From a bacterium (GTDB taxonomy: Bacteria; Pseudomonadota; Alphaproteobacteria; Rs-D84; CACZYB01), in contig JAAVBO010000003.1 of the NCBI GenBank assembly GCA_014803575.1, forward strand, positions 87,165-151,164: a stretch of DNA of 64,000 nt, in the 5' to 3' direction. Shown here piece by piece: positions 4,534 through 43,352 of the stretch; within the stretch, counting starts at the first letter, position 1, and each line of letters begins with the position of its first letter. The notes beneath the pieces are model-generated. The model made no database searches, was not told the DNA's origin, and was given only the letters and a program-made list of their open reading frames with translations. Position numbers and translations under genes: made by a program.

Positions 4534-4545
4534 TCCCCTTTTTTA
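4521..4545. terminator. Bidirectional terminator between convergent genes
   Basis: gggg-aatagt-cccc hairpin followed by a T-run. Confidence 0.5.
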
Positions 4546-5502: not shown

Positions 5503-5534
5503 TTTATTTCCTTTTAAGTTATTAAATAAAAAAA

Positions 5535-5558
5535 GGACTAGTGTAGATACACTAGTCC
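5535..5558. promoter_or_regulatory. Perfect 24-bp palindrome (candidate operator) in a divergent intergenic region
   Basis: GGACTAGTGTA-GA-TACACTAGTCC lies between the divergent genes 4543..5502(-) and 5861..7309(+). Confidence 0.4.
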
Positions 5559-5860
5559 CATTGGTTAAAAAACACCATACCATAATTTAAAGAAGGATTT
5601 ATTAAAAGATAAGGACCTTGTACTATATATTGAAAAATAAGGTCAAAAATAAGGACCGTTTTTTTCTATCGGTCTATAAATCCTATTATATATTAAAATA
5701 GGAAATAATACAAATAAAAAAATATGTTATCATCTATTTGATAATACAGAAATATTTTAATTTGATTGTCTTTTTTATATAAATTTTCCATTTACAACAA
5801 AAACAGCAAATAAAAAACGGTCGTTTAAATTGAACAATTAATGAAATAAAAGGAGATAAA

Positions 5861-7309
5861 ATGAATAGAAAAGATATTCTTAATAATTTAGACCATGCGT
5901 TGGGTGAGTATAAATCTGCACAGTTGTTTGTAGATAATGAAGATAATGCTCAATATATAGTAAATATTGTTAAAAAAATTGATGCTCTTTATTACGGATT
6001 ATTTGATGGAATTGTGGCACCGAGTTATGCTTATGTTTCTAAAGATAAGGTAATGAAAGATAGACATGCCTATGATGCTGATTATGAAAGAGCTAAAAAA
6101 TATGCTGATGTTTTTAGGGGATTTGTTAATGATGTTGAGGTTAAAAAAACTTTTTCTTTGATAGAATCTTTGAAAAAAGAATTACAAAATACAAAAGACG
6201 GTATAAAAGGTGGTATAAATGGTATAACGGAAGGTTTTATTGATGCTTTTGTGAAATTGAAATATGCTTTGGGAGATTTGTTTGTTGATGTAGTTGGTGA
6301 GGGTGTAGAAATTGTAATGAATATAATGGAGCTTGTTGATACATTAGAAAATAAAATCTCTGAGGTTTTATATAATGCCTATAAAATGCCTTTGCACGAA
6401 TCTAAACTACCAGAAATTGAGACAAATAGTCATAATTATTATTATTATCCAGTTGATTCTTCATTAAGAAAAATAAGAATTGATTTTAGGGATAAACTTA
6501 ACGATTTTTATGCTCATAAATTAAACCATGCAACAAAGCCTGCTGACTTTTATTATGGAATTAAGGGGTGTCATTTTCATTTTATTAAACAACATAAAAT
6601 GGATCACAATGAGTGGTTTCATGCTTTTCAGATGGAGAGGGATGGATATTACGTACCTGATACTAATGAGTTCTATAATGAAGAAAATTTTTATTCAAGA
6701 CTCATTGAAAAAATTTTTGCCCTTATACCATATAAAGAAGAGCATATGAAATCAAAATTACCATTGAAAATTATGGAAAATATTTTTGAATATGCAGAAA
6801 TCTTGAAAAAAAACAGATTTAAAACAAATTATGATGGAAAGCAAGACTATGAAGGTCAAAAAAAAGTATATATTTGTTTATTGGCAAGTATTGTTGGAAC
6901 TTTCTTAACGCCTGCTATACTAAGATCACCTAGAGCAAATATGGAGTTTAGGACATCTTTGAGTGTTGAAGAATTGACGGATAATTTTGAAAAAAATCTT
7001 TCAAACCTTAAACAAATTGCTTCAAAACTATCTGAAAAAGAGAAATTGACTCCGGTTGAAAAGGATATTTGCAGTAAGTTAAGTGTGTTGGATAACAACT
7101 TATTTACTTATGACTGGGCTACTGAGATAAATAAAGATTATGATAAGGCAAAATTTAAGGAAGCAAAAAGACTTGCAAAAAATAATGACAGGTATAAAGA
7201 TGCCGAGTATATTCTTGCAGTAAGGAAGTTGCAAGCAAAGTATTTGGGTATGGAATACGATGAAAAGCTTGCTGATGGAATTGCAAAAAGAAAGTTATTA
7301 GAAAAGTAG
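5861..7309 (+). CDS. Hypothetical protein
   Basis: 482-aa ORF with RBS ggagataaaATG. No signal peptide and no recognisable domain. Confidence 0.45.
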   Translation: MNRKDILNNLDHALGEYKSAQLFVDNEDNAQYIVNIVKKIDALYYGLFDGIVAPSYAYVSKDKVMKDRHAYDADYERAKKYADVFRGFVNDVEVKKTFSLIESLKKELQNTKDGIKGGINGITEGFIDAFVKLKYALGDLFVDVVGEGVEIVMNIMELVDTLENKISEVLYNAYKMPLHESKLPEIETNSHNYYYYPVDSSLRKIRIDFRDKLNDFYAHKLNHATKPADFYYGIKGCHFHFIKQHKMDHNEWFHAFQMERDGYYVPDTNEFYNEENFYSRLIEKIFALIPYKEEHMKSKLPLKIMENIFEYAEILKKNRFKTNYDGKQDYEGQKKVYICLLASIVGTFLTPAILRSPRANMEFRTSLSVEELTDNFEKNLSNLKQIASKLSEKEKLTPVEKDICSKLSVLDNNLFTYDWATEINKDYDKAKFKEAKRLAKNNDRYKDAEYILAVRKLQAKYLGMEYDEKLADGIAKRKLLEK

Positions 7310-8452: not shown

Positions 8453-8597
8453 TTTTATATTCCTTTTTTATTCTTATTTCACATATAGAATATAATTCCA
8501 TATCGAAATAAAAAGTCAAAATCAGAATATTGAGTATTTTTATTTAAGTATTTATATTTACAGATGAAATTAAGGAATTTTAGCGGGCAAAAAAAAC

Positions 8598-8611
8598 GTT
8601 CGTTATTTTTG
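8598..8611. repeat. Left arm of a 14-bp perfect inverted repeat (gttcgttatttttg)
   Basis: The partner is at 8751-8764 (caaaaataacgaac). The arms bracket a 139-bp segment containing the poly-C tract and a promoter. Confidence 0.5.
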
Positions 8612-8698
8612 CACGGTGCGATTCGTAAAGTTTTTAGCTATATTTTAATGTAAAAAATATCCTTAAATAGAATTTTATTTAGTAAAATCAATCATTTA

Positions 8699-8707
8699 CC
8701 CCCCCCC
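8699..8707. repeat. Homopolymeric C9 tract (candidate slipped-strand phase-variation site)
   Basis: Nine consecutive C in a roughly 28% GC genome. It directly abuts a TTGACT -35 hexamer upstream of the glycosyltransferase operon. Confidence 0.6.
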
Positions 8708-8736
8708 TTGACTTTTATTCCAAATTGGTATATTTT
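8708..8736 (+). promoter_or_regulatory. Sigma70-like promoter (TTGACT-N17-TATTTT) facing the glycan operon
   Basis: TTGACT at 8708-8713, a 17-nt spacer, then TATTTT at 8731-8736. Hexamers were read by eye in AT-rich DNA. Confidence 0.35.
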
Positions 8737-8750
8737 TTTATTGTTCATTA

Positions 8751-8764
8751 CAAAAATAACGAAC
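8751..8764. repeat. Right arm of the 14-bp inverted repeat
   Basis: Reverse complement of 8598-8611. Confidence 0.5.
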
Positions 8765-9000
8765 ATTAAAATTGAACAGTATTACTAATATGGGGAATAT
8801 ATTATCTGCAACAACAAAACATTATCAATTATATATTCCTCTCTTTAAATTAAAAGGTAAAAAATGGCAACAGAAAAGAGTAATAACGAATTAAAAGAAT
8901 TTTACATAGAAAACAATGTGTCTGATGAGGAATTAGCTGACTATTTATATTCACTACAAGATAATAACAAAGTTGTATCAATAAGATTGGAGAATAAGTA

Positions 9001-9969
9001 ATGGTAAGTGTTAGTGTTATAATGCCCGTATATAATACTAAAGAAAAATACTTTCGAAAAGCTATAGAAAGTATCTTAAAACAAACATTTAAAGATTTTG
9101 AGTTAATTATTGTTGATGATTGTTCCGATAAATATATAGAGGAAATAGTTTCTTCTTATAATGATATTCGTATTAAATATTACAGATTAAATAAAAATTT
9201 AGGAGCGGCAAGTGCAAGAAATTTTGCAATACAAAAATCAAATGGTAAATATTTGGCATTTATGGATTCAGATGATATTTCTTTACCAAACAGATTGCTT
9301 ATACAATATAATTTTTTAGAACAAAATAAAGAAATCGGTTGTATTGGAACTTGTTATAAAATTAAAGGAAAAAATATCAAAATTTTCGGGAAAAATATTT
9401 TTAAGCATGATGAAATTGTAAAATATCTTCTTTTTAAATGTTGTGCATTTTGCCAATCAACAGTGATGCTTTGTAAAGATATATTAATTAACAATAATAT
9501 ACTTTACAGATCAGAATATGTTCCATCAGAAGATTATGCTCTTTGGTTAGATTTAATTGGAAAAACCAGATTTGAAATTCTTAAAAATACATTAGTTATA
9601 TATAGAAATCATAAAGAAAGTATTTCTCATAAAATGAAAAGTATTCAAATAGAAACATCTTTAAAAGCTCAAATTGAAGCAATAAGAAAAAATTGTAACA
9701 TAGAAATATCTATATTAAATGAAATTTTTTCTATATGTAAAATAAAGGATCTTGAAATAAAAGATATTAAAAAATTTGAACAAATAATACTAAATACAGA
9801 TATAACAAATGATTCATTAAAACAATTCCTTAGAAATAAAACAAGAAGAATTTTCTATCATACACATGGCTTTAAAAAACAATATTATCTTTGTCATTCT
9901 AAATTAAATAAACTTTTTAAATTTCCTTTGTATTGGAGGATATTTATTTTTATAACAAGGATGTTTTAA
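9001..9969 (+). CDS. Family 2 glycosyltransferase
   Basis: VSVIMPVYNTKEKYFRKAIESILKQTFKDFELIIVDDCSDK and a DSDD motif; classic GT2 N-terminus. Confidence 0.8.
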   Translation: MVSVSVIMPVYNTKEKYFRKAIESILKQTFKDFELIIVDDCSDKYIEEIVSSYNDIRIKYYRLNKNLGAASARNFAIQKSNGKYLAFMDSDDISLPNRLLIQYNFLEQNKEIGCIGTCYKIKGKNIKIFGKNIFKHDEIVKYLLFKCCAFCQSTVMLCKDILINNNILYRSEYVPSEDYALWLDLIGKTRFEILKNTLVIYRNHKESISHKMKSIQIETSLKAQIEAIRKNCNIEISILNEIFSICKIKDLEIKDIKKFEQIILNTDITNDSLKQFLRNKTRRIFYHTHGFKKQYYLCHSKLNKLFKFPLYWRIFIFITRMF

Positions 9970-10124
9970 ATGATTTTAAATTTAGATTACACAAAGGAAA
10001 AAATATCAAATTTAAAGGATAAAAACACAATTTTATCATTAGTTAAAATTTTTGCTCAAAATAAAAATATTAATGAGGAATATAAAAATTTTTTAAATGA
10101 AATAATAACTTACATGGAGACAAA

Positions 10125-11084
10125 ATGAAGACAATTATTGTAACAGGTGGAACAGGATTTTTAGGTTCTAATTTATGTATTCGATTAATAAATGAGGGTA
10201 ATAAAGTTATTTGTATTGATAATAATTATACCGGACGTTTAGAAAATATAAAAGAAATAGAAACTAATGCTAATTTTAGATTTATTAAACACGATATTTG
10301 TGAACCATTAGAAATTACTGAGCATATAGACCAAATTTATAATCTTGCTTGTCCAGCATCTCCGCCTGCTTATCAAGGAAAACATTCTATTGATACAACG
10401 AAAACTTGTGTGTTTGGTGCGATTAATATGCTTGAACTTGCAAAAAAGCATAATGCGACAATACTTCAAACTTCAACATCTGAAATTTATGGTGAGCCTC
10501 TTGTCCATCCACAAGTGGAAACATACAGAGGTAATGTTAATCCTATTGGTATTAGAGCTTGTTATGACGAAGGAAAACGTTGTGCAGAATCTTTATTCTT
10601 TGATTATCACAGACATGAAGGCGTTGATATAAAGTTGGTTCGCATTTTCAATACATATGGTCCTAAAATGGATCCAAATGATGGTCGTGTTATTTCAAAC
10701 TTTATATGTCAAGCATTATCAGGACAAGATATTACTATTTATGGTGATGGACATCAAACTAGATCCTTTTGTTATGTTGATGATTTGATTGAAGTAATAA
10801 TTCGTATGATGAATTCATCATTTGGATTTATTGGTCCTGTAAATATTGGAAATCCAAATGAATTTACAATAAAGGAATTGGCCGAAATGGTCGTTGATAA
10901 AATAGGAAATGGTTCAAAAATTATTTATAAAGATTTACCTTCTGATGATCCAACACAAAGAAGACCGGATATTACTTTGGTACAAACTAAACTTAATTGG
11001 ACACCGATAGTTCAATTAAATGAGGGATTAGATAAGACTATTAAATATTTTAAGACTCAAATAAATCTATTTAAGAAAGGTTAA
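10125..11084 (+). CDS. UDP-glucuronate decarboxylase (UDP-xylose synthase-type NAD-dependent epimerase/dehydratase)
   Basis: GTGFLGSNL Rossmann motif, a YDEGKR catalytic Y-x3-K, and overall UXS/ArnA-decarboxylase-like sequence. Confidence 0.8.
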
Positions 11085-11087
11085 AAA

Positions 11088-12386
11088 ATGAAAGTAGGAA
11101 TAATAGGTACAGGATATGTAGGACTTCCAACCGGTGTCGGTTTGGCAGAACTTGGAAACGAAGTAATTTGTATAGATAGAGAACAATCAAAAATTGATGC
11201 TTTAAAAGCTGGTAAAATTACACTTTATGAAGATGGTTTGGAAGAGCTTTTTCATAAGAATATGAAAGAAGGACGTATAAAGTTTACAACTTCTATGAAA
11301 GAAGGAATTGAGCAATCTGACTTGGTTATTATTGCAGTTGGAACACCTCCTCATCCCGTAACAAAGGAAGCTGATATGAAGTATATTCATGCTGCGGCTA
11401 CAGAACTTGCTGAACATCTTCAGGGATATACTGTAATTGCAACTAAATCTACTGTTCCTGTTGGTACAGGTGATGATATAGAAGCATTAATAAGAAAGAA
11501 AAATCCAAATGCAGATTTTGATGTTATCTCTTTACCGGAATTTTTACGTGAAGGATTTGCAGTTCATGACTTTTTTAATCCCGATAGGATTGTAGTTGGT
11601 GCAAATTCACAGAAGTCTTGTAATGTCATAAAAGAACTTTATAAACCATTTGAAGAAAAAACAAATATATTATTTGTAAAACGTCGTTCAAGTGAAGTTA
11701 TAAAATATGCTTCCAATGCATTTTTAGCAATAAAAATTCATTATATTAATGAAATGGCTAATTTTTGTGAAAAAACTGGTGCTGATATTTATGAAGTTGC
11801 TAAAGGTATGGGGTTGGATAGCAGAATTGGTCCAAAGTTTTTAAATCCTGGTCCTGGATATGGTGGTTCTTGTTTTCCAAAGGATACTATGGCTATGTCC
11901 TATATGGCACGACAAAATGATGTTGATATGACTTTAATTAATGCTGCTATTAATGGAAATACAAAACGTAAAAAAGAAATGGCGGATAGAGTCTTAAATG
12001 CAATTAAAGGTATTGAAAATCCGAAAATTGCTGTTTTAGGGTTGGCATTCAAAGATGGAACTGATGATTGTCGTGAAAGTCCGGCAATAGAAATCATAGA
12101 AAATCTATTGGAAAATAATGCTAATATTATAGCATATGATCCAAAGGCAATGGAAACAGCAAAACTTTTACTTGGTGATAAAATCAAGTATGCAAATGAT
12201 ATGTATGAATGTTTAAAAGATGCTGATGTCCTTGCAATTTTAACAGAATGGGAAGATTTTAAAAATTTAGATTTGAACAAAGTCGCAAAGCTTATGCGTA
12301 ATAAAAATATTGTTGATTGTAGGAATCTGATTGATGCTAAAAATGTACTAACTAATGGATTCAACTATAAAGGTATTGGTAGGTAA
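11088..12386 (+). CDS. ugd: UDP-glucose 6-dehydrogenase
   Basis: GTGYVGLPTG NAD-binding motif and a GGSCFPKD catalytic-Cys motif. 432 aa. Confidence 0.9.
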   Translation: MKVGIIGTGYVGLPTGVGLAELGNEVICIDREQSKIDALKAGKITLYEDGLEELFHKNMKEGRIKFTTSMKEGIEQSDLVIIAVGTPPHPVTKEADMKYIHAAATELAEHLQGYTVIATKSTVPVGTGDDIEALIRKKNPNADFDVISLPEFLREGFAVHDFFNPDRIVVGANSQKSCNVIKELYKPFEEKTNILFVKRRSSEVIKYASNAFLAIKIHYINEMANFCEKTGADIYEVAKGMGLDSRIGPKFLNPGPGYGGSCFPKDTMAMSYMARQNDVDMTLINAAINGNTKRKKEMADRVLNAIKGIENPKIAVLGLAFKDGTDDCRESPAIEIIENLLENNANIIAYDPKAMETAKLLLGDKIKYANDMYECLKDADVLAILTEWEDFKNLDLNKVAKLMRNKNIVDCRNLIDAKNVLTNGFNYKGIGR

Positions 12387-12389
12387 AAT

Positions 12390-14498
12390 ATGGTAAATAA
12401 AACAATAAAAAATAAATTAGAAGAAAAAACATCACCTAAAATTTCAATTATTGTTCCTGTGTATAATGTAGAAAAATATCTACAAAGATGTTTAGATTCT
12501 TTGGTTAATCAGACATTAAAGGATATTGAAATAATATGTATTAATGATGGCTCCAAAGATAATTCATATAAAATTCTGAAGGACTATGCTAAAAGAGATA
12601 AAAGAATAAAAGTATTTACACAAGATAATTCAGGACCGGCCAAAGCCAGAAATGTAGGTTTAAAAAACGCAACAGGTGAATTTATAATGTTTTGTGATTC
12701 TGATGATGAATATACTGAAGATATGTGTAAAGATATGCTATCTTGTATAAAAAAACAGAATGTTGATCTTGTTATGTGTAATACTACGTTATTAAACAGA
12801 GAAGAGAAGGAGATAACAAGCAAATATTATTTCCCTTTTTCTCCTGGGAAATATACTGTTGATGATAGAATTAAAATTGGAATTAATGTATATTTATGGA
12901 ATAAAATTTTTAAAAAATCAATAATAGATTCTTATAATATTAAATTTCCAGAAGGACATAAATCTGATGATAATCTTTTTATTTACGAATATGTAATGGT
13001 TTCTGATAATATATATATTTTAGATGAAAAATTATATTATCATTATGATATAGAGAATTCTATTATGGATTTATATAATAGTAAGAAAATAAAGTTATGT
13101 GATGTATTAGATAAATTAGATATATTGATTAATTTATATAATTTTCTTCAAAAATATAATATATTTGTTCAAAATAAAAAAAGTTTTTCTTATATATTTT
13201 ATACCGAGTTATTTTATGCTTGGATACATGTTCCAGAAGAATTTAAAAAAGAATTTTTGACTAGAAGTTCTGAAGTAGTGCAAAATATCAAAATAAATAA
13301 TTTTTTATATAATCCTAGTGACTTGTATAAATTAAAAGTTATTGAAGTTATAAACAATAACAATTATTTAGCAGCAGAAAAATTATTAGATTTTTTATTA
13401 AGTACTCAAAATAAAGCTAGAAATAAATATTTATTTGCAGAAACAGTAAAACCGATTTTTAAAGAATATTGTATACCTATAGTTTTTAATTGTGATAATA
13501 ATTTTGTAATGTATTTATCAATTGCATTACAATCTATAATTGATAATTCTTCTGTTGAACATAATTATGATATTTGTATTTTAAATGAAGATATTTCTGA
13601 AAGAAATCAAGAAAAATTACATAGAATTTTTTATAAGCATAAAAATTTTTCTTTAAGATTTTTTAATATGAAAAATATTTCTTTACAATATAATTTATCA
13701 AAATATAAAACTATTAATCATGTAAAAACAGCTGCATATTATCGTTTGTTTGTTCCTGAAATATTTAAATATTATAAAAAAGTAGTCTATTTGGACAGTG
13801 ATATTATTGTTAATTGTGATATTTATAAATTAATAGAGAAAAATATAGAAAATTATTCTTGTGCTGCAGTACGTGATTTTTATATTTCTAATATTAAAGA
13901 AGGTAATGAATTTGTATTTCCTGGTATTATTGAGTATAGTAAAAATATACTTAATATTTCTAATTTTAATAAATATTTTAATTCTGGTGTAATGATTTTT
14001 AATATAAATAAAATGAATAAATTTAATTATTTTGATAAATTTATAAAAATTGCAGAAATTAATAATAAATATTTTAATGATCAAAATGTATTAAATTCAG
14101 TATTACAAGATGATGTTTATTTATTAGATTCTAGTTATAATATGCAACTTAATTCTGGAGCAATTCTTTTCATTTATTGTAATTTAATTCCTTTAAATAA
14201 AATAAAAATTTTGCATTTTTGTAGCAAATACAAACCGTGGAATAAATCATCTCTTGATCAATATGATACCATTTGGTGGGAATATGCAAGAAAAACTCCA
14301 TTCTATGAGGAAATATTAATGAATTTAATGAATGCAAAAAGTACACAAAATGTGAAAACTCAGCGTCCTAACAACAATAACTATCCTCAATTTCAATATC
14401 ATCATAAGTTAGAAAGAATATTTTCTGTAAAAGGGTTATATACACCAAACAAAAAATATAAAGTTCTTACAATTTTTGGTATAAAAATAAAATTTTAG
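12390..14498 (+). CDS. Bifunctional glycosyltransferase: N-terminal GT2 domain plus C-terminal GT8 (LgtC/RfaJ-like) domain
   Basis: N-terminus ISIIVPVYNVEKYLQRCLDSL...CDSDD. C-terminus YYRLFVPEIF...VVYLDSDIIV...NSGVMIFN, typical of GT8. Confidence 0.7.
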   Translation: MVNKTIKNKLEEKTSPKISIIVPVYNVEKYLQRCLDSLVNQTLKDIEIICINDGSKDNSYKILKDYAKRDKRIKVFTQDNSGPAKARNVGLKNATGEFIMFCDSDDEYTEDMCKDMLSCIKKQNVDLVMCNTTLLNREEKEITSKYYFPFSPGKYTVDDRIKIGINVYLWNKIFKKSIIDSYNIKFPEGHKSDDNLFIYEYVMVSDNIYILDEKLYYHYDIENSIMDLYNSKKIKLCDVLDKLDILINLYNFLQKYNIFVQNKKSFSYIFYTELFYAWIHVPEEFKKEFLTRSSEVVQNIKINNFLYNPSDLYKLKVIEVINNNNYLAAEKLLDFLLSTQNKARNKYLFAETVKPIFKEYCIPIVFNCDNNFVMYLSIALQSIIDNSSVEHNYDICILNEDISERNQEKLHRIFYKHKNFSLRFFNMKNISLQYNLSKYKTINHVKTAAYYRLFVPEIFKYYKKVVYLDSDIIVNCDIYKLIEKNIENYSCAAVRDFYISNIKEGNEFVFPGIIEYSKNILNISNFNKYFNSGVMIFNINKMNKFNYFDKFIKIAEINNKYFNDQNVLNSVLQDDVYLLDSSYNMQLNSGAILFIYCNLIPLNKIKILHFCSKYKPWNKSSLDQYDTIWWEYARKTPFYEEILMNLMNAKSTQNVKTQRPNNNNYPQFQYHHKLERIFSVKGLYTPNKKYKVLTIFGIKIKF

Positions 14499-24135: not shown

Positions 24136-25503
24136 TCAGAATCGTTGGTTAAGTGTCATTTCTATGGCACTTTTTTCATATTCGTGTTGCCATACGTTGG
24201 AATTTTTATCTGTGTAGGTATAAGTAATGGTTGGCGAGAATCCCCAAAAACTTAATTTTCTGTTTGATAGAGATAATGAGTATTTTCTTGTAATATCTTT
24301 TTCTTTTATTTCTTCAAACTTTAAGTTTTTTACAAACCATCTTTCCTTATCATAATTTGTGTATAATATGGAAGGTTCAACATACATTGTGAATCCGTAT
24401 GGAAGTTCTATGCCAAAACCTATTGCATAGCTGTTTCTTGTATTGGAATAAATTCGTTCCTTTGTATTTTCAATTTCATATCCTGTTCTGAAAATTAAAT
24501 ATTTTGAGGCATCGAACATATATGATAATCTGGCATTAATTCCGCGAGTATCTCCATCCAAAATTTCGCCATAATCATCATATCTTGTTGGCATATAAGA
24601 AAGAGTTAAACCTCCGGATAGACTTCTTGTAAAATCATAACCGGTATTTATTTTTAATCCGACTGCGTAGCTGTAAGGTTGGTGGGCAAGCCATCTTCTG
24701 TATGCGGAAGGTCCAGCAAAAATTTCTCCATTTTTCCAAACATATTTTGGACCGAAATTATAACTTAAATAAAGATCGTCATATTCTTTTTTATTGTATG
24801 TATTTGAATAAAGCATAGCTTCATTTCTTAATCGCCATTTATCATTAATTAAAAATTCATAACTTCCGCCGAGGGAAACATTAAAACCTATGGCTTTTTC
24901 TTTATCTGATAATTGATTACAAAGTACGCCCCACATAGTCATAATACATTGTTCGCCACCGGTTGCGTTGTTGATATTATCATCCGGTGCGGCGCCGATA
25001 TTAAACCAGATATTCCAATTTTTGTTTTGTCGTGCGACATAAATATATTTTGCGATTTCTTGTTTTACAGGTGGAGGAAGAGTTTCGTCTGTTGCTGCTA
25101 ATCTTAAATGATAATCAGCTCTGTACCATGATTTTTGTAGCATATAAAGTTGTGCGAGTTTGAATCTTATTGATGATATATTTGGTTGGTAATCAAGGAT
25201 GAATCTTAAAATTTCAATTGCATCATCTATACGATTTTCAAGGGTTGCGATTTCAGAGAGAAGATATAGACGTTCTATTTCCAATTCCTTTACATTGAAA
25301 GGAGATTTTAGAAGTAGTGTTTTTGCACTGTCATATTCTTTATTTTTAATAAATTCTTTTGCTAAATTTATTATTTGTATGGGATTTAATTTGATAATTT
25401 TTTCAGAAGTTTCTGTATCGGGAATAGGAGTAATTTCCTCTGCCTTAATATCAAAAGATATTAAGGAAAAAATTACTCCTATGACTATAATAAATAACTT
25501 CAT
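24136..25503 (-). CDS. Outer-membrane TPR plus beta-barrel protein resembling Slam (surface lipoprotein assembly modulator, DUF560)
   Basis: Signal peptide, then an N-terminal TPR-like region, then a C-terminal region of alternating aromatic beta-strand patterns ending in a terminal Phe (LNQRF). The NWNIWFNIGAAPDDNINNA segment matches the DUF560 barrel start as I recall it. Confidence 0.55.
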   Translation of the reverse strand: MKLFIIVIGVIFSLISFDIKAEEITPIPDTETSEKIIKLNPIQIINLAKEFIKNKEYDSAKTLLLKSPFNVKELEIERLYLLSEIATLENRIDDAIEILRFILDYQPNISSIRFKLAQLYMLQKSWYRADYHLRLAATDETLPPPVKQEIAKYIYVARQNKNWNIWFNIGAAPDDNINNATGGEQCIMTMWGVLCNQLSDKEKAIGFNVSLGGSYEFLINDKWRLRNEAMLYSNTYNKKEYDDLYLSYNFGPKYVWKNGEIFAGPSAYRRWLAHQPYSYAVGLKINTGYDFTRSLSGGLTLSYMPTRYDDYGEILDGDTRGINARLSYMFDASKYLIFRTGYEIENTKERIYSNTRNSYAIGFGIELPYGFTMYVEPSILYTNYDKERWFVKNLKFEEIKEKDITRKYSLSLSNRKLSFWGFSPTITYTYTDKNSNVWQHEYEKSAIEMTLNQRF

Positions 25504-25625
25504 TTAATTATAATTAACGTTTTTTTGATACATATAATTTATATCTGAAATTTATGTATGTCAATAAAGTCTCAACATTTATTTCTCAATAAAATTAATC
25601 AAAAAAACGTCTCCCTTTTTTTTTG
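25504..25625 (-). promoter_or_regulatory. Intergenic module, copy 1 (inverted relative to copies 2 and 3), with TTGACA-N17-TAAATT oriented toward the Slam gene
   Basis: On the minus strand the -35 is at 25564-25559 and the -10 at 25541-25536; the Slam start codon is at 25503. The reverse complement of this region aligns with 27064-27184. Arm sequences are degenerate (aacgttttttt / aaaaaaacgtc). Confidence 0.5.
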
Positions 25626-27035
25626 TTACTTACGTTTTGCACCGAATATGATATCCCAGTAAGTTGCACCTTTCCATGTTTCTTTACCAGAATTATCGTA
25701 ATCAGTCCATCCCCAACCGCCAGAATATCTTCCAACTGCTTCAGAAGGATCCTTATCAGCACCATAATATGCAGTTAATAAAGTCTCTGAATCCGGATAC
25801 ATAGGATATATTGTACCGTCTTCATCTTCATGTATAAAATGTTCTTTTGTATAATAGTCGAACTTTTTACCATCAGCTGTATATTCTGATGAAATATCAT
25901 CACCTTCTTTTGTTACAGTAACATCATACCAGTTATTAAATTTGAAATTTGCTACTTCTTTCATTGTTGCACCCGGTGTGACAGTAAGAGATACAGTTCC
26001 ATCTAAATCCATATAAGCAAGATCTTGTTCGTTGCTTGTAAGATTATAGCTTTCATCCATAATGTTACCCAAAGCACGACCTTCAAATGTGAAATTATCA
26101 GTTATATTTTCAATTTTTCTTTTTTCATTTCCGCCAAAGAAAAATACGGTTGCACTTTCTTTATTTTTGTAATCATTTACAAAATTATCCTTCATCATAC
26201 CGAATTGAGCATAGGATAGTTCCATACTGTCACCGCCAAGGGTAAGTTCGTATGTGTGATTTCCTTTTTTCTTTTCTCCTTTAAGAAGACCGGTATTATC
26301 TTTTCTAAGGTCGGATAATTCAAATTCTAAATCCTTTACATTTATGCCGTTTGCATCTATTTTTATACCTTTCGCATTACCATTTTCATCAACAGTAAAT
26401 TGTATAACACTGTCTTCTTGTTCTATATTAGATGGGAATTTGAAATCTTTTGAAAGATCATATTTTACTGCTGTGAATTTATCTTTATTTTCTGTTATTG
26501 CAGTTTTTATATCTTCGGCTTTTTCAATAATAGAATCTATAATATTGTCAGCTTTTGCGATTTCGTTTGCAATTTCTTTACCAACAAAAATAGTTAATCC
26601 CTGTGTAATAGCTGTTTTGAAAATGGTTTCATCTTCTAACTTTTCTGTAATAGTGTTTAAGATTTCTTTATCTACATTTATCCAATTTGCATAAATTTGA
26701 ATAAGATTATATTTTTTTTCTGTTTCGCTTAGTCCTGTTGCTTTTGCGGATTTAGAAGTTGCATTTCTTGCATTTGAATAATTAGATGCAGAGGCAGTTA
26801 AAGATTCATTTACAGATACAATTTTATCATAATTTGATGTATCAATAGGAGCCCCAAGCTCTTTTTCTGCCATAGCAACAATTTCTTTTTTATTATCTGA
26901 TTGAACAGAGAATGAAGAAACTGTTGTAGTAGGCAAAGTTGTATTTGGAACGGAGTTTCCGCCACCGTTACCACCACCGCAAGCGGTAAGTATGGTTGAT
27001 AGAGCGATTAAGCTTATTTTTAAATTATTTTTCAT
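25626..27035 (-). CDS. Putative surface lipoprotein, paralog 1 (TbpB-like C-terminal barrel; candidate Slam substrate)
   Basis: Lipobox LTAC, a GGGNGGGNSVPNTTLP linker, and a C-terminal FKFNNWYDV motif. The protein ends in IIFGAKRK, matching the TbpB C-terminus (...VVFGAKRQ) as I recall it. Confidence 0.55.
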   Translation of the reverse strand: MKNNLKISLIALSTILTACGGGNGGGNSVPNTTLPTTTVSSFSVQSDNKKEIVAMAEKELGAPIDTSNYDKIVSVNESLTASASNYSNARNATSKSAKATGLSETEKKYNLIQIYANWINVDKEILNTITEKLEDETIFKTAITQGLTIFVGKEIANEIAKADNIIDSIIEKAEDIKTAITENKDKFTAVKYDLSKDFKFPSNIEQEDSVIQFTVDENGNAKGIKIDANGINVKDLEFELSDLRKDNTGLLKGEKKKGNHTYELTLGGDSMELSYAQFGMMKDNFVNDYKNKESATVFFFGGNEKRKIENITDNFTFEGRALGNIMDESYNLTSNEQDLAYMDLDGTVSLTVTPGATMKEVANFKFNNWYDVTVTKEGDDISSEYTADGKKFDYYTKEHFIHEDEDGTIYPMYPDSETLLTAYYGADKDPSEAVGRYSGGWGWTDYDNSGKETWKGATYWDIIFGAKRK

Positions 27036-27063
27036 ATTAATTTCCTTTCAGTTTTTTATATTA

Positions 27064-27184
27064 GTCAAAAAAAAGGTACGTTTAAATTGACCGATTTTAT
27101 TAAAAAATAAACATTAGGATTTTATTGACATACACGAAATTAGGATATAAATTATATATGTCAAAAAAAAACGTACCTTTTTTT
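27064..27184 (+). promoter_or_regulatory. Intergenic module, copy 2: 16-bp inverted-repeat arms flanking a TTGACA-N17-TAAATT promoter that currently points antisense
   Basis: The arms are aaaaaaaaggtacgttt (27067-27083) and aaaaaaaaacgtaccttttttt (27163-27184). The -35 is at 27125-27130 and the -10 at 27148-27153, both on the plus strand. Confidence 0.5.
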
Positions 27185-27226
27185 ATCACTTTATTACTGA
27201 ATGAAACTACTCCTTATTTGTTAAAG

Positions 27227-28738
27227 TTATTTACGTTTTGCTCCGAAGACTGATTCAAACATATATTCTGTTCCTTCAATCTCATCGCGGAGATGTAATC
27301 TTCCAACAACTTCTTCTAATTCATTCATATCACCATAATACTCATCTTCAATGAAGTGATCTCTCTGATTGAAATCTATTTCTTTAAATTTATTAAAATC
27401 TCCATATATGTCATCTCCCGTTAATGTAATTTGACCATTGTTATAGTTGACATCATAGAAATTATCAAATTTAAGATTTAAATTTTTATTTAGGGAATCA
27501 TCTTTGAATGAAACGGTTAAATCAGCATTTCCATTAAGTATGAGTGCATTTTTACCTTCGATACTAGCGGTACCAATAGCTTTTCCTGTAAATGATATTT
27601 CATTATTATCGTTTAATACATACACAAGCTCATCTTTGGATGCGATAAGTTTTTCTTTGTATCCGCCAAAGAAAACATCAGAAGTTTCTGTATGAGGTAA
27701 TTCAACATTATTATCAGGATTATTGGATAGTGGACGGTTTGCCGATAATATTGTTTTATATAATGATCCAAAGTCAGAGTATGATAGTCCAACGGATTTT
27801 CCCCCAAGGATTATTTTATATTGATAATTGATATCAACTCCATCATCTTTTATATCACTAGAATCATATTCATTATCATCACTAATTTTATTTGCAAAAT
27901 CAATTAATCCTGTGTCTTTATCATAAACATAATATTTATAAGATTCCGTTTGATTTTTTTCTCCTATAATAAAGCCGTTTTTATCTTCTTTGAAATCATT
28001 AATATCAAAATCTATTGTTAAGTCTGTATCAAATTCATCTGATGGATTATTACGTTCATTATGTTCATAATGCATTCCTGTGACTTTATTATCCTTCACT
28101 GTATACTTAAATATGTTACGAGTTGTTGCATATTGATCATCTTTATTATCGGATAATTCTACAGTTGCAAGAGAAAATGTTTCTAATGTAGCTTGTTTTT
28201 TAATATCCTCGACATCTCCTGATATATCACCAATAGTTTCAAAAGTTGATTTTATGTTGTCATCTGTTAACTTTTCTACTATATCGTTTTTGTTTATAAG
28301 TTTTAGGGCATCAATAAATTTTTGTTTGTTTTCCCTTAAAACTTCTTCTGATTGGTCAGCCAAATTTTCAAGGACATCTTTCAATTCGTCGACATAACTT
28401 AATTTTACTTGGGCTATGCGATATTTTTTTTCGGCATCAGTCAAATTTTGGGATGAAACTTTTGCATTTGAAGTTGCACTTCTGTTTGGATTGTTTTTAT
28501 GAATTGCTTCGTATTTAGAAGCTACTTCTTCTGTGTATTCGGCGACATCTATTTTACCAAGATGTCCTTCAACATAATCAATAATATCTGATTTATTATC
28601 TACACTTGTTTTCATAGCGGTTATAGTTTCTGCACGTGGTAAAGTTGTATTTGGAACGGAGTTTCCACTTCCACCACCACCGCAAGCAGTAAGTAAAGTT
28701 GATAGAGCAATTAAGCTTATTTTTAAATTGTTTTTCAT
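27227..28738 (-). CDS. Putative surface lipoprotein, paralog 2
   Basis: The true start is MKNNLKISLIALSTLLTAC at 28738; the ORF-track start at 28837 runs through the upstream module. The protein ends in SVFGAKRK and has a KFDNFYDV motif. Confidence 0.55.
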   Translation of the reverse strand: MKNNLKISLIALSTLLTACGGGGSGNSVPNTTLPRAETITAMKTSVDNKSDIIDYVEGHLGKIDVAEYTEEVASKYEAIHKNNPNRSATSNAKVSSQNLTDAEKKYRIAQVKLSYVDELKDVLENLADQSEEVLRENKQKFIDALKLINKNDIVEKLTDDNIKSTFETIGDISGDVEDIKKQATLETFSLATVELSDNKDDQYATTRNIFKYTVKDNKVTGMHYEHNERNNPSDEFDTDLTIDFDINDFKEDKNGFIIGEKNQTESYKYYVYDKDTGLIDFANKISDDNEYDSSDIKDDGVDINYQYKIILGGKSVGLSYSDFGSLYKTILSANRPLSNNPDNNVELPHTETSDVFFGGYKEKLIASKDELVYVLNDNNEISFTGKAIGTASIEGKNALILNGNADLTVSFKDDSLNKNLNLKFDNFYDVNYNNGQITLTGDDIYGDFNKFKEIDFNQRDHFIEDEYYGDMNELEEVVGRLHLRDEIEGTEYMFESVFGAKRK

Positions 28739-28766
28739 TTTGTTTCCTTTCAGTTTTTTTATATTA

Positions 28767-28886
28767 GTCAAAAAAAAGGAACGTTTAAATTGACCTATTG
28801 TATTGAAAATAAATATTAGGATTTTATTGACATACACGAATTTAGAATGTAAATTATATATGTCAAAAAAAAACGTTCCTTTTTTT
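28767..28886 (+). promoter_or_regulatory. Intergenic module, copy 3: arms with a compensatory T-to-A change and the same antisense-pointing promoter
   Basis: The arms are aaaaaaaaggaacgttt and aaaaaaaaacgttccttttttt (ggaacg/cgttcc, versus ggtacg/cgtacc in copy 2). The -35 is at 28827-28832 and the -10 at 28850-28855. About 90% identical to copy 2 over ~170 bp. Confidence 0.5.
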
Positions 28887-28900
28887 ATTACTGAATGAAA

Positions 28901-30001
28901 CTAGTCTCTTTTCAATCCAAATGCGGCGTTGAAGTCAATGATGGAAATTCCAGGTCTGTTTTCATCTTTGAAATCATTACCTGTATATTCTTCACCATCT
29001 CTCATAGCTTCTATGATTTCCATACCGCCACCGGCTTCAACAACTGTGTTTGTTAAATCATCATAATAGTAGTTAAGTGTAAAATTATTTAGTCCGCCGA
29101 GAGCATTTTTTTCTTCGCCGTTTTTAAATTTGAAAAGGTCATCTTCTCCTGTGAATTTTTCAAATTTTACATTAACATCAGATTCACCAAATTTGTCAGT
29201 AACAACTACATCATACCAATTATCAAAATTCATTGTTAAAGTAGATGTTGGGTTTGCTCCATTGTCAAAATGAAGTGTTGCTTTACCGTCAAGATTTATA
29301 TTACCTTCTTTGGAACCTTGATTTGCAATGTTTTCTTCGGCACTTACTCCTCCAATTGCTCTACCGGTAAAGTCAATAGATGCGATGTCTTTTTCAATTT
29401 TATCCGGAGAAATTTCTCTTTCTTTATATCCGCCGAACACACCTAATTGATATTCATCTAAGTCATCACTTTCTTCTTTTGGTATATACTTACCGTTTTC
29501 ATCAGTACCATATTCAATAGATTTACCATTTAGGCGGAAGAAGTCAAAATAACTTAAACCAAGTTCTTTTCCCATTGATTCAAAGGTTAGTTCTTGATAC
29601 ATCTCATGATCTCCTTCTGGACCATCATAGATAAATTTATTTTCATTATTTCTTTTAAATACTGTTTCTCCGTTTTCATCAGAAAAAGATACAATTTTTC
29701 CATTATCATCTACGTTGAATTTAAAACTCGAATTTTCACCTTCATCAAATACAGTAAATTTTATGTCGCTGATATCAGCATATTGTTTAGCACGTGATGT
29801 TGATGTAGCGGATCTTACGCTTTCGGGTTTTTCCTTTGTAAGGTCAATACGACTTTTCAAAGATGTTATTTGTCTGTTGGATGCTTCGACAGTAGTAGGC
29901 AAAGTTGTGTTTGGAACGGAGTTTCCGCCACCATTACCACCACCGCAAGCGGTAAGTAAAGTTGATAGAGCAATTAAGCTTATTTTCAAATTATTTTTCA
30001 T
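28901..30001 (-). CDS. Putative surface lipoprotein, paralog 3
   Basis: The same MKNNLKISLIALSTLLTACGGGNGGGNSVPNTTLP N-terminus, a C-terminal MNFDNWYDV motif, and an ending AAFGLKRD. Confidence 0.5.
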   Translation of the reverse strand: MKNNLKISLIALSTLLTACGGGNGGGNSVPNTTLPTTVEASNRQITSLKSRIDLTKEKPESVRSATSTSRAKQYADISDIKFTVFDEGENSSFKFNVDDNGKIVSFSDENGETVFKRNNENKFIYDGPEGDHEMYQELTFESMGKELGLSYFDFFRLNGKSIEYGTDENGKYIPKEESDDLDEYQLGVFGGYKEREISPDKIEKDIASIDFTGRAIGGVSAEENIANQGSKEGNINLDGKATLHFDNGANPTSTLTMNFDNWYDVVVTDKFGESDVNVKFEKFTGEDDLFKFKNGEEKNALGGLNNFTLNYYYDDLTNTVVEAGGGMEIIEAMRDGEEYTGNDFKDENRPGISIIDFNAAFGLKRD

Positions 30002-30047
30002 AGTAATTTCCTTTCATTAGTTTATTATTATTTACTTTGTGTTAAAT

Positions 30048-31607
30048 TTATTGACGTTTCGCACCGAAGACATATTCTAAACTTGTGTTTATTTTACCTT
30101 CCTTATCTTTATATTCTATAATTCCACCACCAACTGCTTCTGTTGGAGAGTGTGCATTTTCACCATAAAGATTTACAAAACTTGATTGATTTGTTGAATT
30201 ATTAAGCATATCAATAATCATTTGATTTTCTAAACTTCCTATATTATCGTAAAATTTAGAATCTTCTATTTTGTTATATCTTATATCATATCCTCCACTT
30301 ATAAAATGTCCATCTGGGGCAATTGTAGTATTTGGTGAATATACTACTTCTTCTTCATATTTTGGAGTAATATTCATACTAATTCCGTTGTCCCAATTAA
30401 CATTTAAAGATGTTGTTGTGTTCATATTTGAAAAATGAACATTTAAAGATGTATCTCCTTGTAAAAATTTATCTATTCCAGATACATTTAAATTACCGTA
30501 TGCTTTACCTTTAAATGTTACATCTCCTAATTCATAAGATTTACTTATATCATAGAATGGAAATAATAAAGCACTTTGATTTTTTTCATTAAATCTGTTT
30601 TGATTTGTATTATATCCAAGTGTTGCCAGATAATGGTTTGACGATTTATTATTATCAACTTGGATATAAGTAAAATCAGCGTATGATAATCCTACGGATG
30701 TTCCTCCTAAAATAATTTTGTAATTATTTTTATCATCAGATGTTTTTATTATTTTATTCCCATCTTCATCTATTATATCATCTTTGTTAAAAGTTATGGT
30801 TTTATTTGTTATATCAGAGTTAAATGACAAACTATATATATCTCCATTACTGTCAGTATTATATTTTAAAGTAAAACTTTCATCATCTCTTAATGGAGTA
30901 AACTGTAATTGATCTATACTTATGTCTTTATAATTATTTTCAATAAAATCAAGTCGTTTTGTATAGTATGAGGGATCAAATGCGTAAATAGTTGCATTTT
31001 TATTTAAATTTATAGTATCTACTATCATTTCAACACTATTTGAATACTTTATGAAATTATTCATGTCATCTTCTGTTATTATTTTTCCATATTTAGTTTC
31101 ATATAAATATTTAGTAACCCTATTTTGAAAATCAACCATTCCAAGAAAAGCTTCACTATAAATTGTATTAAAATAAACATAATTATAAAGAAATTCGTTG
31201 ATAAAATTTTCATCATTTTTTGATATTTCTTCTAATTGTTCTAATCCATTATCTTCTAATGCTATTTCGACATGTTTTCTAATATAGTTTATATTATCTA
31301 TTAATTTTTTAGTTATTGTATCTATTATTTCATCTTCTGATAATGAATTGTACTTATCATCTTTAATTAAAATATCATAAGTATTTTTATCCAAGAGTTC
31401 ATCGTGAACATTTTGGAACCATGTAGAATTTTTTACAGTTTGAAAAGCATTAGAATTTGATTTTATTGAAATCTTTGCTGAATTTGTATCAGAAATTGTC
31501 GGTAAATTTGTATTTGGAATAGAACTTCCGTCACCACTTCCACCACCACCGCAAGCAGTAAGTAGGGTTGATAGAGCAATTAGGCTTATTTTAAAATTGA
31601 TTCTCAT
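30048..31607 (-). CDS. Putative surface lipoprotein, paralog 4 (first gene of the array)
   Basis: MRINFKISLIALSTLLTACGGGGSGDGSSIPNTNLP N-terminus and an ending YVFGAKRQ. It lies 46 bp upstream of paralog 3. Confidence 0.5.
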   Translation of the reverse strand: MRINFKISLIALSTLLTACGGGGSGDGSSIPNTNLPTISDTNSAKISIKSNSNAFQTVKNSTWFQNVHDELLDKNTYDILIKDDKYNSLSEDEIIDTITKKLIDNINYIRKHVEIALEDNGLEQLEEISKNDENFINEFLYNYVYFNTIYSEAFLGMVDFQNRVTKYLYETKYGKIITEDDMNNFIKYSNSVEMIVDTINLNKNATIYAFDPSYYTKRLDFIENNYKDISIDQLQFTPLRDDESFTLKYNTDSNGDIYSLSFNSDITNKTITFNKDDIIDEDGNKIIKTSDDKNNYKIILGGTSVGLSYADFTYIQVDNNKSSNHYLATLGYNTNQNRFNEKNQSALLFPFYDISKSYELGDVTFKGKAYGNLNVSGIDKFLQGDTSLNVHFSNMNTTTSLNVNWDNGISMNITPKYEEEVVYSPNTTIAPDGHFISGGYDIRYNKIEDSKFYDNIGSLENQMIIDMLNNSTNQSSFVNLYGENAHSPTEAVGGGIIEYKDKEGKINTSLEYVFGAKRQ

Positions 31608-31640
31608 TTTTTTTACCTTTCATTAGTTTTTATTTGTTCA

Positions 31641-31660
31641 AAAATAATGATCGTTATTTT
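31641..31660. repeat. Near-palindromic A-tract/CG-core element (aaaataatgatcgttatttt)
   Basis: 17 of 20 positions match 31817-31836 (aaaataacgatcgttttttt), which has a perfect AACGATCGTT core. Confidence 0.4.
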
Positions 31661-31816
31661 AGGTATATACTTTTTTTTAGAAAATTAATTTTATTTTTTA
31701 GAGAGTTTTAAAATTTAAACGACGAAATTATATTGAATAATCAAATAGATAAATAATCAGTAAAAATATTGCTTGAAAATATTCTTATCCAAATATAAAA
31801 TATTTTTGATTGTTCC

Positions 31817-31838
31817 AAAATAACGATCGTTTTTTTTT
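31817..31838. repeat. Palindromic A-tract / AACGATCGTT / T-tract element
   Basis: Partner of 31641-31660. Together they bracket ~155 bp upstream of lipoprotein paralog 4. Confidence 0.4.
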
Positions 31839-31856
31839 ACCGATATTTTTTTTATT

Positions 31857-40222: not shown

Positions 40223-40834
40223 ATGACAATATATACATATTTAAGGGTATCAACAGACAAGCAGGATTATTATAATCAGCGGGTTGGAATTATTGATTTT
40301 TGTAATAAAAACGGATGGAAGATTGATAAAGAAATTATTGATGACGGTGTTAGTGGTGTAAAGGAACCTATTAACAGAAAACTTGGTAAATTATTAAAAG
40401 AAATAAAATGTGGTGATATTTTGGTGGTGTCGGAAATTTCACGGTTGGGAAGAAAGCTTTTTATGCTTTTTCGCATACTTGAAAATCTGCTTAATAATGG
40501 GGTTAATGTTTATTCCGTGAAGGATGGATATTCTCTTGATAATTCTATACAAAGTAAGGTGTTGGCGTTTGCTTTTGGAATGGCGGCTGAAATAGAGCGT
40601 GATATGATTTCGCTTAGGACGAAGGAGGCTTTGGCTAAAAAAAGGAAAGATGGAGTTGTCCTCGGACGACCAAAAGGTAGAAAAAATAAAAGGTTGAAGC
40701 TTTGTGATAAGGTTGAGGATATAAGGTATTTGTTGGATTTACAGATTCCGAAAATAAGAATTGCAAAAAAATTGAAAGTTTCAAAAAATACTTTGAATAG
40801 GTTTATTAAATTATATGATATAAAAAAATGTTAA
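40223..40834 (+). CDS. Small serine recombinase (Hin/Gin invertase / resolvase family)
   Basis: YLRVSTDKQ catalytic-Ser motif, GDILVVSEISRLGR and GRPKG motifs, and a C-terminal HTH (IAKKLKVSKNTLNRFIK). 203 aa. Confidence 0.85.
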   Translation: MTIYTYLRVSTDKQDYYNQRVGIIDFCNKNGWKIDKEIIDDGVSGVKEPINRKLGKLLKEIKCGDILVVSEISRLGRKLFMLFRILENLLNNGVNVYSVKDGYSLDNSIQSKVLAFAFGMAAEIERDMISLRTKEALAKKRKDGVVLGRPKGRKNKRLKLCDKVEDIRYLLDLQIPKIRIAKKLKVSKNTLNRFIKLYDIKKC

Positions 40835-40846
40835 AATTATATAAAA

Positions 40847-40868
40847 AATCCCCCGTACGGAGGATTTT
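40847..40868. terminator. Hairpin trailer shared with tRNA-Lys(TTT); bidirectional terminator
   Basis: aatcccccgtacggaggatt is the reverse-complement copy of the aatcctccgtatgggggatt element at 43325-43344 and 48985-49004. Confidence 0.55.
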
Positions 40869-40875
40869 CAAACTT

Positions 40876-40951
40876 TGGTGGGTGATTGGGGATTCGAACC
40901 CCAGACCCACTGATTAAGAGTCAGTTGCTCTACCAACTGAGCTAATCACCC
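40876..40951 (-). tRNA. tRNA-Lys (anticodon CTT)
   Basis: 76-nt cloverleaf read by hand: GGGTGAT acceptor, anticodon loop CTCTTAA, T-loop GGTTCGAATCC, and an encoded CCA. Confidence 0.85.
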
Positions 40952-41069
40952 AAAAATATTTTTTAAGTATAAATGCTTTTATTCATAAATTCAAGTATTT
41001 TTTATAAATAAAAATTTTTATTTGAAAGGGAAGTAAACAAAATATATTTCTTTACTTCCCATATTACCC

Positions 41070-43171: not shown

Positions 43172-43241
43172 TATTTTTATAAAAAATGCTTGACTATATA
43201 CTTTTTTGTAGTATTATTTATTGCTATAAAGCATTAGCTTT

Positions 43242-43317
43242 GGGTGTTTAGCTCAGCTGGTAGAGCAACTGACTTTTAATCAGTGGGTCACAGGTTCAAG
43301 TCCTGTAACACCCACCA
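43242..43317 (+). tRNA. tRNA-Lys (anticodon TTT)
   Basis: 76 nt: GGGTGTT acceptor, anticodon loop CTTTTAA, T-arm GGTTCAAGTCC, and an encoded CCA. Confidence 0.85.
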
Positions 43318-43352
43318 AAGTTTGAAAATCCTCCGTATGGGGGATTTTTTTT
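43309..43352 (+). repeat. Left 44-bp direct repeat (tRNA-Lys 3' end plus trailer hairpin); attL-like
   Basis: 43 of 44 positions match 48969-49012. Confidence 0.7.

Follow-up and report, generated by a model that had tools for sequence, protein, structure and literature searches.

The hix and gix sites of the Hin/Gin group of DNA invertases are 26 bp long and consist of two 12-bp half-sites around a 2-bp core. To our knowledge, master-invertase regulons have been worked out almost solely in Bacteroidales. Systems in which a master invertase of the Mpi type acts on dispersed invertible promoters are already known: Mpi of Bacteroides fragilis inverts 13 distant regions (PMC4747536; PMC10403206). 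Here we describe a 64,000-nucleotide stretch of contig JAAVBO010000003.1 (here, the window; G+C content, ~30%), in which an open reading frame (ORF) at positions 40223..40834 of the + strand encodes a 203-amino-acid (aa) small serine recombinase of the Mpi type (here, the invertase). We consider it probable that the product of this gene, an Mpi-lineage invertase encoded on the chromosome, acts in trans and flips promoter modules elsewhere in the window. The new features are the host lineage (Rs-D84/Enterousia-type gut Alphaproteobacteria), promoters of the sigma-70 type, and cargo in the form of surface lipoprotein assembly modulator (Slam) and lipoprotein genes; we found no paper on invertons in this lineage.

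The locus resembles the Mpi system of B. fragilis in its enzyme (a small serine recombinase of ~200 aa, for which Mpi gives the best full-length profile match), in the location of the gene apart from its presumed targets, in the several short, promoter-bearing, invertible segments with a common repeat, in the repeat core AAACG-WW-CGTTT, and in its cargo, which comprises surface polysaccharide and other surface molecules of a gut symbiont. It differs in that the host is an alphaproteobacterium and not a member of the Bacteroidales, in that the predicted promoters are of the sigma-70 type (TTGACA/TAAATT) and not of the Bacteroides TAnnTTTG type, and in that most of the cargo consists of putatively Slam-dependent, TbpB-like lipoproteins, with two modules of just 97 bp.

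Family and fold of the invertase

The invertase ORF starts with an ATG preceded by AAAGGAG, a good ribosome-binding site. Pfam family PF00239 (Resolvase, N-terminal domain) matches residues 3 to 145 (E = 6.1e-34), and the catalytic residues Y6, R8, S10, R74, and R77 are invariant in an alignment of 51 homologous sequences. The NCBIfam model NF009949 (master DNA invertase Mpi family) matches the protein end to end (residues 3 to 198) with 245.3 bits, and the second-best NCBIfam family reaches 37.6 bits. Comparison with Gin yields 50.6 bits and comparison with gamma-delta resolvase yields 44.9 bits. The label “Hin/Gin-type” given in the initial annotation is thus imprecise, and Mpi-type is preferable (245 bits for the Mpi model versus 51 bits for Gin).

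An AlphaFold (AF2) model of the invertase (mean predicted local distance difference test [pLDDT] score, 83) consists of an alpha/beta catalytic domain, a long E-helix (residues 109 to 142), and a C-terminal three-helix domain (helices 161 to 172, 177 to 183, and 188 to 197). The model aligns with full-length gamma-delta/Hin and Tn3 resolvase structures over 196 to 202 columns (Foldseek, E = 5e-11). Pfam gives only a weak match for the C-terminal helix-turn-helix (HTH) domain (HTH_23, E = 0.0056); the domain is supported by the end-to-end match of the Mpi profile, the helices of the model, and the full-length structural alignment. The PF00239 match, the Mpi profile, and the model therefore bear out the earlier description of a serine recombinase of 203 aa with a C-terminal HTH. 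That description had also assigned the protein to the invertases and resolvases by size and architecture, which agrees with its E-helix and C-terminal three-helix domain; large serine integrases are longer than 400 aa and carry recombinase and zinc-ribbon domains.

The invertase had further been called the only recombinase in the window. At the Pfam level and for the larger ORFs this is correct: Pfam scans and precomputed Pfam hits for window ORFs of at least 100 aa, excluding those that merely overlap a longer gene, revealed no integrase, transposase, or second resolvase. Among the small ORFs at 47.3 to 49.7 kb, reading of the translations revealed nothing recombinase-like.

Five modules with a common 26-bp site

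By reading the intergenic regions that were flagged in a repeat search, we found five modules, each bounded by an inverted pair of 26-bp sites. Module E (5643..5833; no strand assigned) has sites at 5643-5668 and 5808-5833 (cores AC/GT, 165 bp apart), and module A (8587..8775, + strand) has sites at 8587-8612 and 8750-8775 (cores TT/AA, 163 bp apart). Modules B (27065..27187, + strand; sites 27065-27090 and 27162-27187; cores TA/TA) and C (28768..28889, + strand; sites 28768-28793 and 28864-28889; cores AA/TT) are shorter, with cores 97 and 96 bp apart, respectively. Module F (31638..31839, + strand) has sites at 31638-31663 and 31814-31839 (cores AT/AT, 176 bp apart). All ten sites are intergenic and lie directly upstream of genes, and the five modules are 8.4 to 34.6 kb away from the invertase gene.

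Alignment of the ten sites on their centers reveals a 12-nt half-site, TCAAAAAWAA[C/G]G, on either side of a 2-bp core. The positions A-4, A-3, and G-1 are invariant (20/20 half-sites), and the core dinucleotides are reverse-complementary within every pair. The strict core AAASGNNCSTTT has 5 matches in the window, versus 0.35 expected. When a position weight matrix (PWM) of the site is run on the window, all ten sites reach 21 bits or more, the best of the remaining positions has 9.9 bits, and none of 200 shuffled sequences reaches the threshold. With a leave-one-module-out PWM, the two sites of the held-out module stay within the top 10 of 63,974 positions. The sites of modules B and C are among the best scoring (24.6 to 26.9 bits) and form perfect 16-bp repeats. 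The five modules share a single site type, and this indicates a single recombinase specificity.

The core of the Mpi target repeat reportedly reads ARACGTWCGT, a string that did not occur in the papers that we searched. Module A contains an exact match to it (AAACGTTCGT), and modules B, C, E, and F contain variants with one mismatch. A primer for PSA ends in AGACGAACGT (PMC10939037).

Module D (25517..25610, - strand), a sixth copy that is related to B and C, is degenerate and has the flipped orientation. The outer half-sites have decayed, there is a 4-nt spacer on one side, and neither site reaches the PWM threshold; the module is probably locked in the ON state. The initial annotation had proposed the modules at 25.5 to 28.9 kb as targets of the invertase, which stands for B and C (27.1 and 28.8 kb), with their paired specific sites, and probably not for the degenerate D (25.5 kb). 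The switch at 8.6 kb, named there as a further possible target, is module A and is indeed bounded by two inverted copies of the same site type. Modules E (5.7 kb) and F (31.7 kb) are two switches beyond those listed earlier. Since D and B are inverted relative to each other at a distance of 1.4 kb, we also considered inversion of the entire 469-aa lipoprotein gene between them, and rejected this because the D sites are degenerate.

Compared with Hin, Gin, Cin, and Pin, the invertase belongs to the same superfamily and has the same fold, and its predicted site has the same design of two 12-bp half-sites and a 2-bp core with an A-tract beside the core. The sequence similarity is weak, however; there are many candidate targets instead of one, the gene is neither inside nor beside an invertible segment, an enhancer is not recognizable, and the segments span 0.1 to 0.18 kb and not 1 to 3 kb. 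Tn3 and gamma-delta resolvases share the full-length fold, but there is no transposon, three-subsite res, or direct-repeat site beside the invertase gene, and the sites described here form inverted pairs around putative promoters.

Orientation of the putative promoters

Promoters were assigned by consensus match. In module A, TTGACT-17-TATTTT (8708-8736) points toward the glycosyltransferase operon, corresponding to the ON state. The predicted promoters of modules B (27125-27153), C (28827-28855), and F (TTGAAA-17-TAAAAT, 31773-31801) point away from the lipoprotein gene 25626..27035(-), gene 27227..28738(-), and gene 30048..31607(-), respectively, so that all three modules would be OFF. In module D, TTGACA-17-TAAATT points at the Slam gene (ON). 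Module E has no clear promoter inside.

Inversion of module F in related assemblies

Within the species, module F was found in both orientations. In assembly ERZ27276792, in which the invertase is 100% identical, the segment between the F cores is inverted precisely, in flanks that are collinear with the window; in a global alignment, the flipped segment scores 355, versus 233.5 for the segment as is. Module F is flipped in assembly ERZ23499746 (L065) as well, so that it would be ON in both, and five other assemblies match the window orientation. Moreover, a second scaffold of ERZ23499746 (L048) breaks off at the inner end of the left F repeat, precisely on its last base, and a Logan contig (L053) does so at the corresponding point of an A-like repeat. 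Such contig ends are expected from a branching assembly graph when both orientations are present, and so they are indirect support for inversion.

A flipped orientation was seen for F, and none was seen for B, C, or E in the assemblies compared. Exact-protein lookups with the family 2 glycosyltransferase (GT2), the 356-aa gene product, and the 503-aa lipoprotein returned the source assembly only, so that the comparison of A and E in this strain is limited to that assembly. For B and C, the junction expected after flipping is AAAAAGGWACGTTTTTTTTTGACATATA. A scan of JGI metagenomes with the left junction of B/C returned only unrelated terminator hairpins of a higher-GC organism, and the species is absent there.

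A phage-like element inserted in module C

In two further assemblies, an 8.36-kb phage-like element (L046, 15302-20483; L063, 8112-12260) is inserted exactly at the core of the right site of module C, between positions 28876 and 28877 of the window. Among its 17 small ORFs are genes for an endolysin-like protein, a replication-initiator-like protein with a winged HTH, and a 202-aa Mpi-like protein of the resolvase family that is 46% identical to the invertase; PHROGs matches were obtained for 2 of 10 element ORFs. The junctions are AAAAACG/TT/CCTTTT for attB, AAAAACG/TT/GGATTA for attL, and AATAATG/TT/CCTTTT for attR. Because the three share only GTT, the crossover took place at the predicted 2-bp core. 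The right site of module C is thus a recombination-competent attB. In the reconstructed attP, the left half-site (TCAAAAATAATG) matches a host half-site letter for letter, and the expected circular attP junction of the element is AAAAATAATG-TT-GGATTAAATTT.

We tentatively suggest, at somewhat less than even confidence, that Mpi-type recombinases play a double role in this lineage with one site type, serving a chromosomal inverton regulon on the one hand and acting as an element integrase that uses a host inverton site as attB on the other. Insertion of the element splits switch C, and the host and element enzymes might act on each other's sites, mobilizing the element or rewiring surface variation.

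Proposed link between the invertase and the modules

The idea that the enzyme acts in trans on the modules in the manner of Mpi, which the initial annotation had raised, gains support from the Mpi family profile, from the single site type, and from the precise inversion of F in other assemblies. Some support also comes from homologues elsewhere. A homologue with 61% identity (L017) has an inverton with AAAATAACG/AT/GG arms 2 bp past its stop codon, and the Mpi-like gene of a Tidjanibacter species (Bacteroidales; L039) has an inverton with AAACG/AA/CGTTT arms (AAACGAACGTTT) just upstream.

Several observations weigh against this link or against parts of it. The link itself is one weak point; that this enzyme acts on these sites is our inference. 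In 476 kb around homologues elsewhere, the site PWM finds 3 sites of at least 15 bits versus ~1 expected, and the connection of the family to the site is therefore supported modestly. NF009949 is an equivalog model with a curated cut-off of 272 bits, and the invertase stays under it (245 versus 272 bits), as do Rikenellaceae and Tidjanibacter homologues (269 and 263 bits); by its sequence, the invertase is an Mpi-like relative and not a strict Mpi equivalog. With regard to the promoters, consensus matches of this kind are no more common than in shuffled sequences. In module C (28827-28866), a TTGACA-17-TAAATT on the + strand and a TTGACA-16-TAAATT on the - strand are face to face, and because of this the ON/OFF call for C rests on its homology with D. 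As for the inversion of F, the flipped orientation is confined to one strain type and could be a fixed difference instead of ongoing switching, and several Logan contig ends near F, which we did not count, lie 8 to 18 nt inside the segment and not at the repeat.

Two further points of this kind concern B and C: all other assemblies spanning them have both in the window (OFF) orientation, and their core spacing of 96 to 97 bp is short for a synapse of serine recombinases. It is possible, if rather doubtful, that just A, E, and F, with their segments of ~165 to 176 bp, are active and that B and C are, like D, frozen cassettes with relic repeats. The in-place decay of D shows that such cassettes can end in this way. 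On the other hand, the sites of B and C are perfect 16-bp repeats of 24.6 to 26.9 bits, the right site of C is recombination competent as an attB, and promoters under Mpi control normally have a strong bias toward OFF (PMC10403206). Frozen B and C cassettes would be compatible with an invertase that acts on the remaining modules.

Finally, another invertase could exist in this organism, because what can be seen of its genome amounts to only ~64 kb and a related genome encodes two paralogues: the metagenome-assembled genome (MAG) Mgla_MAG_18-bin_5 encodes L013 (86% identity) and L034 (49%), and UBA6376 likewise has two paralogues (L015 and L021). The modules might then be real invertons that are flipped by a recombinase from outside the window, either an Mpi-like paralogue or a tyrosine invertase, with other targets or none for the invertase described here. 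The element-borne paralogue with 46% identity, which recombines at one of these very sites, speaks in the same direction. We nevertheless regard this explanation as unlikely, given that the invertase is the sole recombinase found in the window, that Mpi represents the one family known for trans action on many promoters with AAACG-NN-CGTTT cores, and that no tyrosine recombinase is found beside any module, as would be usual for locally acting invertases. Flipping of the modules by the invertase is the reading that we retain as probable.

Gene neighborhood and the tRNA-Lys island

The invertase gene is flanked by genes for elongation factor P (EF-P), a metallo-beta-lactamase (MBL) hydrolase, tRNA-Lys, and flavodoxin. 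The tRNA-Lys(CTT) gene (40876..40951, - strand; ARAGORN) is next to the invertase gene, as had been stated earlier; it lies 41 bp past the end of the invertase ORF and is convergent with it. The gene order MacB-OEP-LysM-EamA-EFP-MBL-invertase is kept in two sister species, in which the invertases are 91% and 86% identical, indicating that the invertase is a stable chromosomal gene and not a mobile one. In one of these species (L013), the upstream synteny is kept, the downstream genes differ, and the tRNA gene is absent. The tRNA gene is thus an incidental neighbor rather than a functional partner. Within 8 kb of the invertase gene, no PWM position exceeds 10 bits, and no transposase or res-like array is present.

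These data bear on the possibility that a mobile element, either the tRNA-Lys island described below or the stretch that separates the two tRNA-Lys genes, uses the invertase as its resolvase or integrase, and that the modules are unrelated to the enzyme. Its location next to a tRNA gene, the break of synteny directly downstream in L013, and its relative with 46% identity, which is evidently the integrase of the 8.4-kb element, would fit such a role. Yet nothing within 8 kb resembles a transposase, a res-like array, or a site of more than 10 bits, EF-P and the MBL hydrolase are found upstream in three species, and the variable island is located at a different tRNA gene, tRNA-Lys(TTT), with a 44-bp repeat typical of tyrosine integrases. 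We consider this possibility very improbable.

The island itself (43363-48851) contains an RloB/AAA_21 pair, a ShlB/POTRA fragment, small toxin-antitoxin-like ORFs, a DinJ-like ORF, and an HNH-like ORF. Its 5.5 kb are bounded by a 44-bp direct repeat (43309-43352 and 48969-49012) that takes in the terminator of tRNA-Lys(TTT) and the final 9 nt of the gene itself. In strain L001, the same slot is occupied by a methyltransferase gene, two dCTP-deaminase-like genes, and a gene for an S66 peptidase, and neither version of the island (window or L001) contains an integrase gene. A long repeat that begins in the 3' end of a tRNA gene is typical of tyrosine integrases, and serine recombinases leave 2 bp; the 44-bp repeat therefore points to a lost tyrosine integrase and not to the invertase. 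The invertase was rejected as the integrase of this island in view of the other tRNA gene, the 44-bp repeat, and the syntenic neighborhood in the sister species. The initial annotation had judged the protein a better candidate for flipping the modules than for integrating the tRNA-Lys island, and we agree, since the island is located at tRNA-Lys(TTT), 2.4 kb away, and has the 44-bp repeat.

The two tRNA-Lys genes with their terminators (40843-40954 and 43239-43350) form a 112-nt inverted repeat with 88% complementarity that flanks the flavodoxin-MerR-MltG genes. Homologous recombination could invert the 2.3 kb between them; no such variant is present in L001. Apart from this, two G+C-rich, hairpin-like 31-mers (CCTCGTGTCCACGAKGGCACGAGG) that are 87% identical are found in AT-rich intergenic DNA at 1275-1305 and 3756-3786.

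The host is an uncultured, Rs-D84/Enterousia-like gut alphaproteobacterium. Homologous loci come from gut MAGs titled Alphaproteobacteria, “Candidatus Enterousia,” and “Rickettsiales.” Rs-D84, the order of Enterousia, has reduced genomes that are mostly smaller than 1 Mb (PMC12306168). Related homologues of the invertase are represented by thousands of significant matches in metagenomes of several phyla.

Surface-associated cargo of the modules

The genes downstream of module A (8864..14498, + strand; assigned by gene calls and Pfam) encode a 45-aa leader ORF, GT2, an epimerase/dehydratase, UDP-glucose dehydrogenase, and a fusion of GT2 and family 8 glycosyltransferase (GT8) domains. In other strains, a switch with 82% identity to A fronts a different polysaccharide locus. 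An ORF of 44 to 45 aa (MATEKSNNELKEFYIENNVSDEEL...; 8864-9001 in the window) is the first gene past switch A in all strains, and the later polysaccharide genes differ. A run of nine C residues (8699-8707) just upstream of the -35 element of module A is not found in A-like modules elsewhere; it could provide a second, slippage-type layer of variation.

The Slam gene (24136..25503, - strand; PF04575, E = 3.7e-36) adjoins genes for four paralogous surface lipoproteins (25626..31607, - strand), all of which share a lipobox (LLTAC), a linker rich in Gly, and an FGAKR motif at the C terminus. They comprise a 469-aa protein behind module B (25626..27035, - strand), a 503-aa protein behind module C (27227..28738, - strand), a 366-aa paralogue (28901..30001, - strand) between the 503-aa and 519-aa genes, and a 519-aa protein behind module F (30048..31607, - strand). 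The four proteins have no Pfam match, the 469-aa lipoprotein has no sequence match in PDB, and the group, with 48 homologues, is restricted to this lineage. For a confident AF2 model of the 366-aa paralogue (pLDDT, 85), the best-matching PDB folds are those of TbpB, LbpB, and fHbp, with marginal E values of ~1e-3. TbpB, LbpB, and fHbp are the classical substrates of Slam.

This arrangement, in which Slam adjoins lipoproteins that combine a lipobox and a Gly-rich linker with a beta-fold like that of TbpB, resembles the Slam and TbpB/LbpB/fHbp systems of Neisseria and its relatives. It differs from Slam/TbpB systems in that phase variation would run through promoter inversion; phase variation of the HpuA type is due to homopolymer slippage. 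Module D is absent in L048, L049, L053, and L054, in which the Slam gene follows a 472-aa lipoprotein gene by 4 bp, so that switch B would control Slam as well. Lipoprotein genes also differ in number (L047 and L062 were compared), and in some strains without the 519-aa paralogue, switch F directly fronts the 366-aa gene. Recombination between directly repeated sites might be behind the loss of the 519-aa gene.

Module E lies between two divergent genes, 4543..5583(-) and 5861..7309(+), to which no functions were assigned. At 4543-5583, 49678-50987, and 50945-51469, there are genes for MuF-like proteins (HPNCRC motif) and for phage-lysozyme domain proteins, and a gene for an LprI lysozyme inhibitor adjoins one of them. 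These genes resemble effector/immunity pairs, and one of the genes is the left-hand neighbor of switch E.

Proposed mechanism and significance

According to the mechanism that we propose, a dimer of the invertase would bind each 26-bp site, and two inverted sites 96 to 176 bp apart would form a synapse. All four strands would be cut at the 2-bp core and, after subunit rotation, religated in the opposite orientation. The putative sigma-70-type promoter of each segment would thereby switch the downstream gene or genes ON or OFF, independently of the other modules and in trans over 8 to 35 kb. Switch F is predicted to govern the 519-aa and 366-aa lipoproteins, switch C the 503-aa lipoprotein, switch B the 469-aa lipoprotein (plus Slam where D is absent), and switch A the glycosyltransferase/polysaccharide operon, with the decayed module D keeping Slam constitutively ON. 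The expected outcome would be combinatorial variation of the cell surface. Flipping of A, B, C, and E is a prediction from site architecture.

That an element has inserted at an inverton site hints at how evolution could pass between invertases and small serine integrases. A defined 26-bp site together with a 203-aa enzyme would help to annotate the many related homologues in metagenomes. If the proposed link is correct, several scattered promoter switches with a common core would, in an alphaproteobacterium, be operated by a single small serine recombinase. The presence of at least five switches in 64 kb, in an organism whose relatives have small genomes, suggests that surface variation, be it directed at host immunity or at phages, is a core need of these bacteria.

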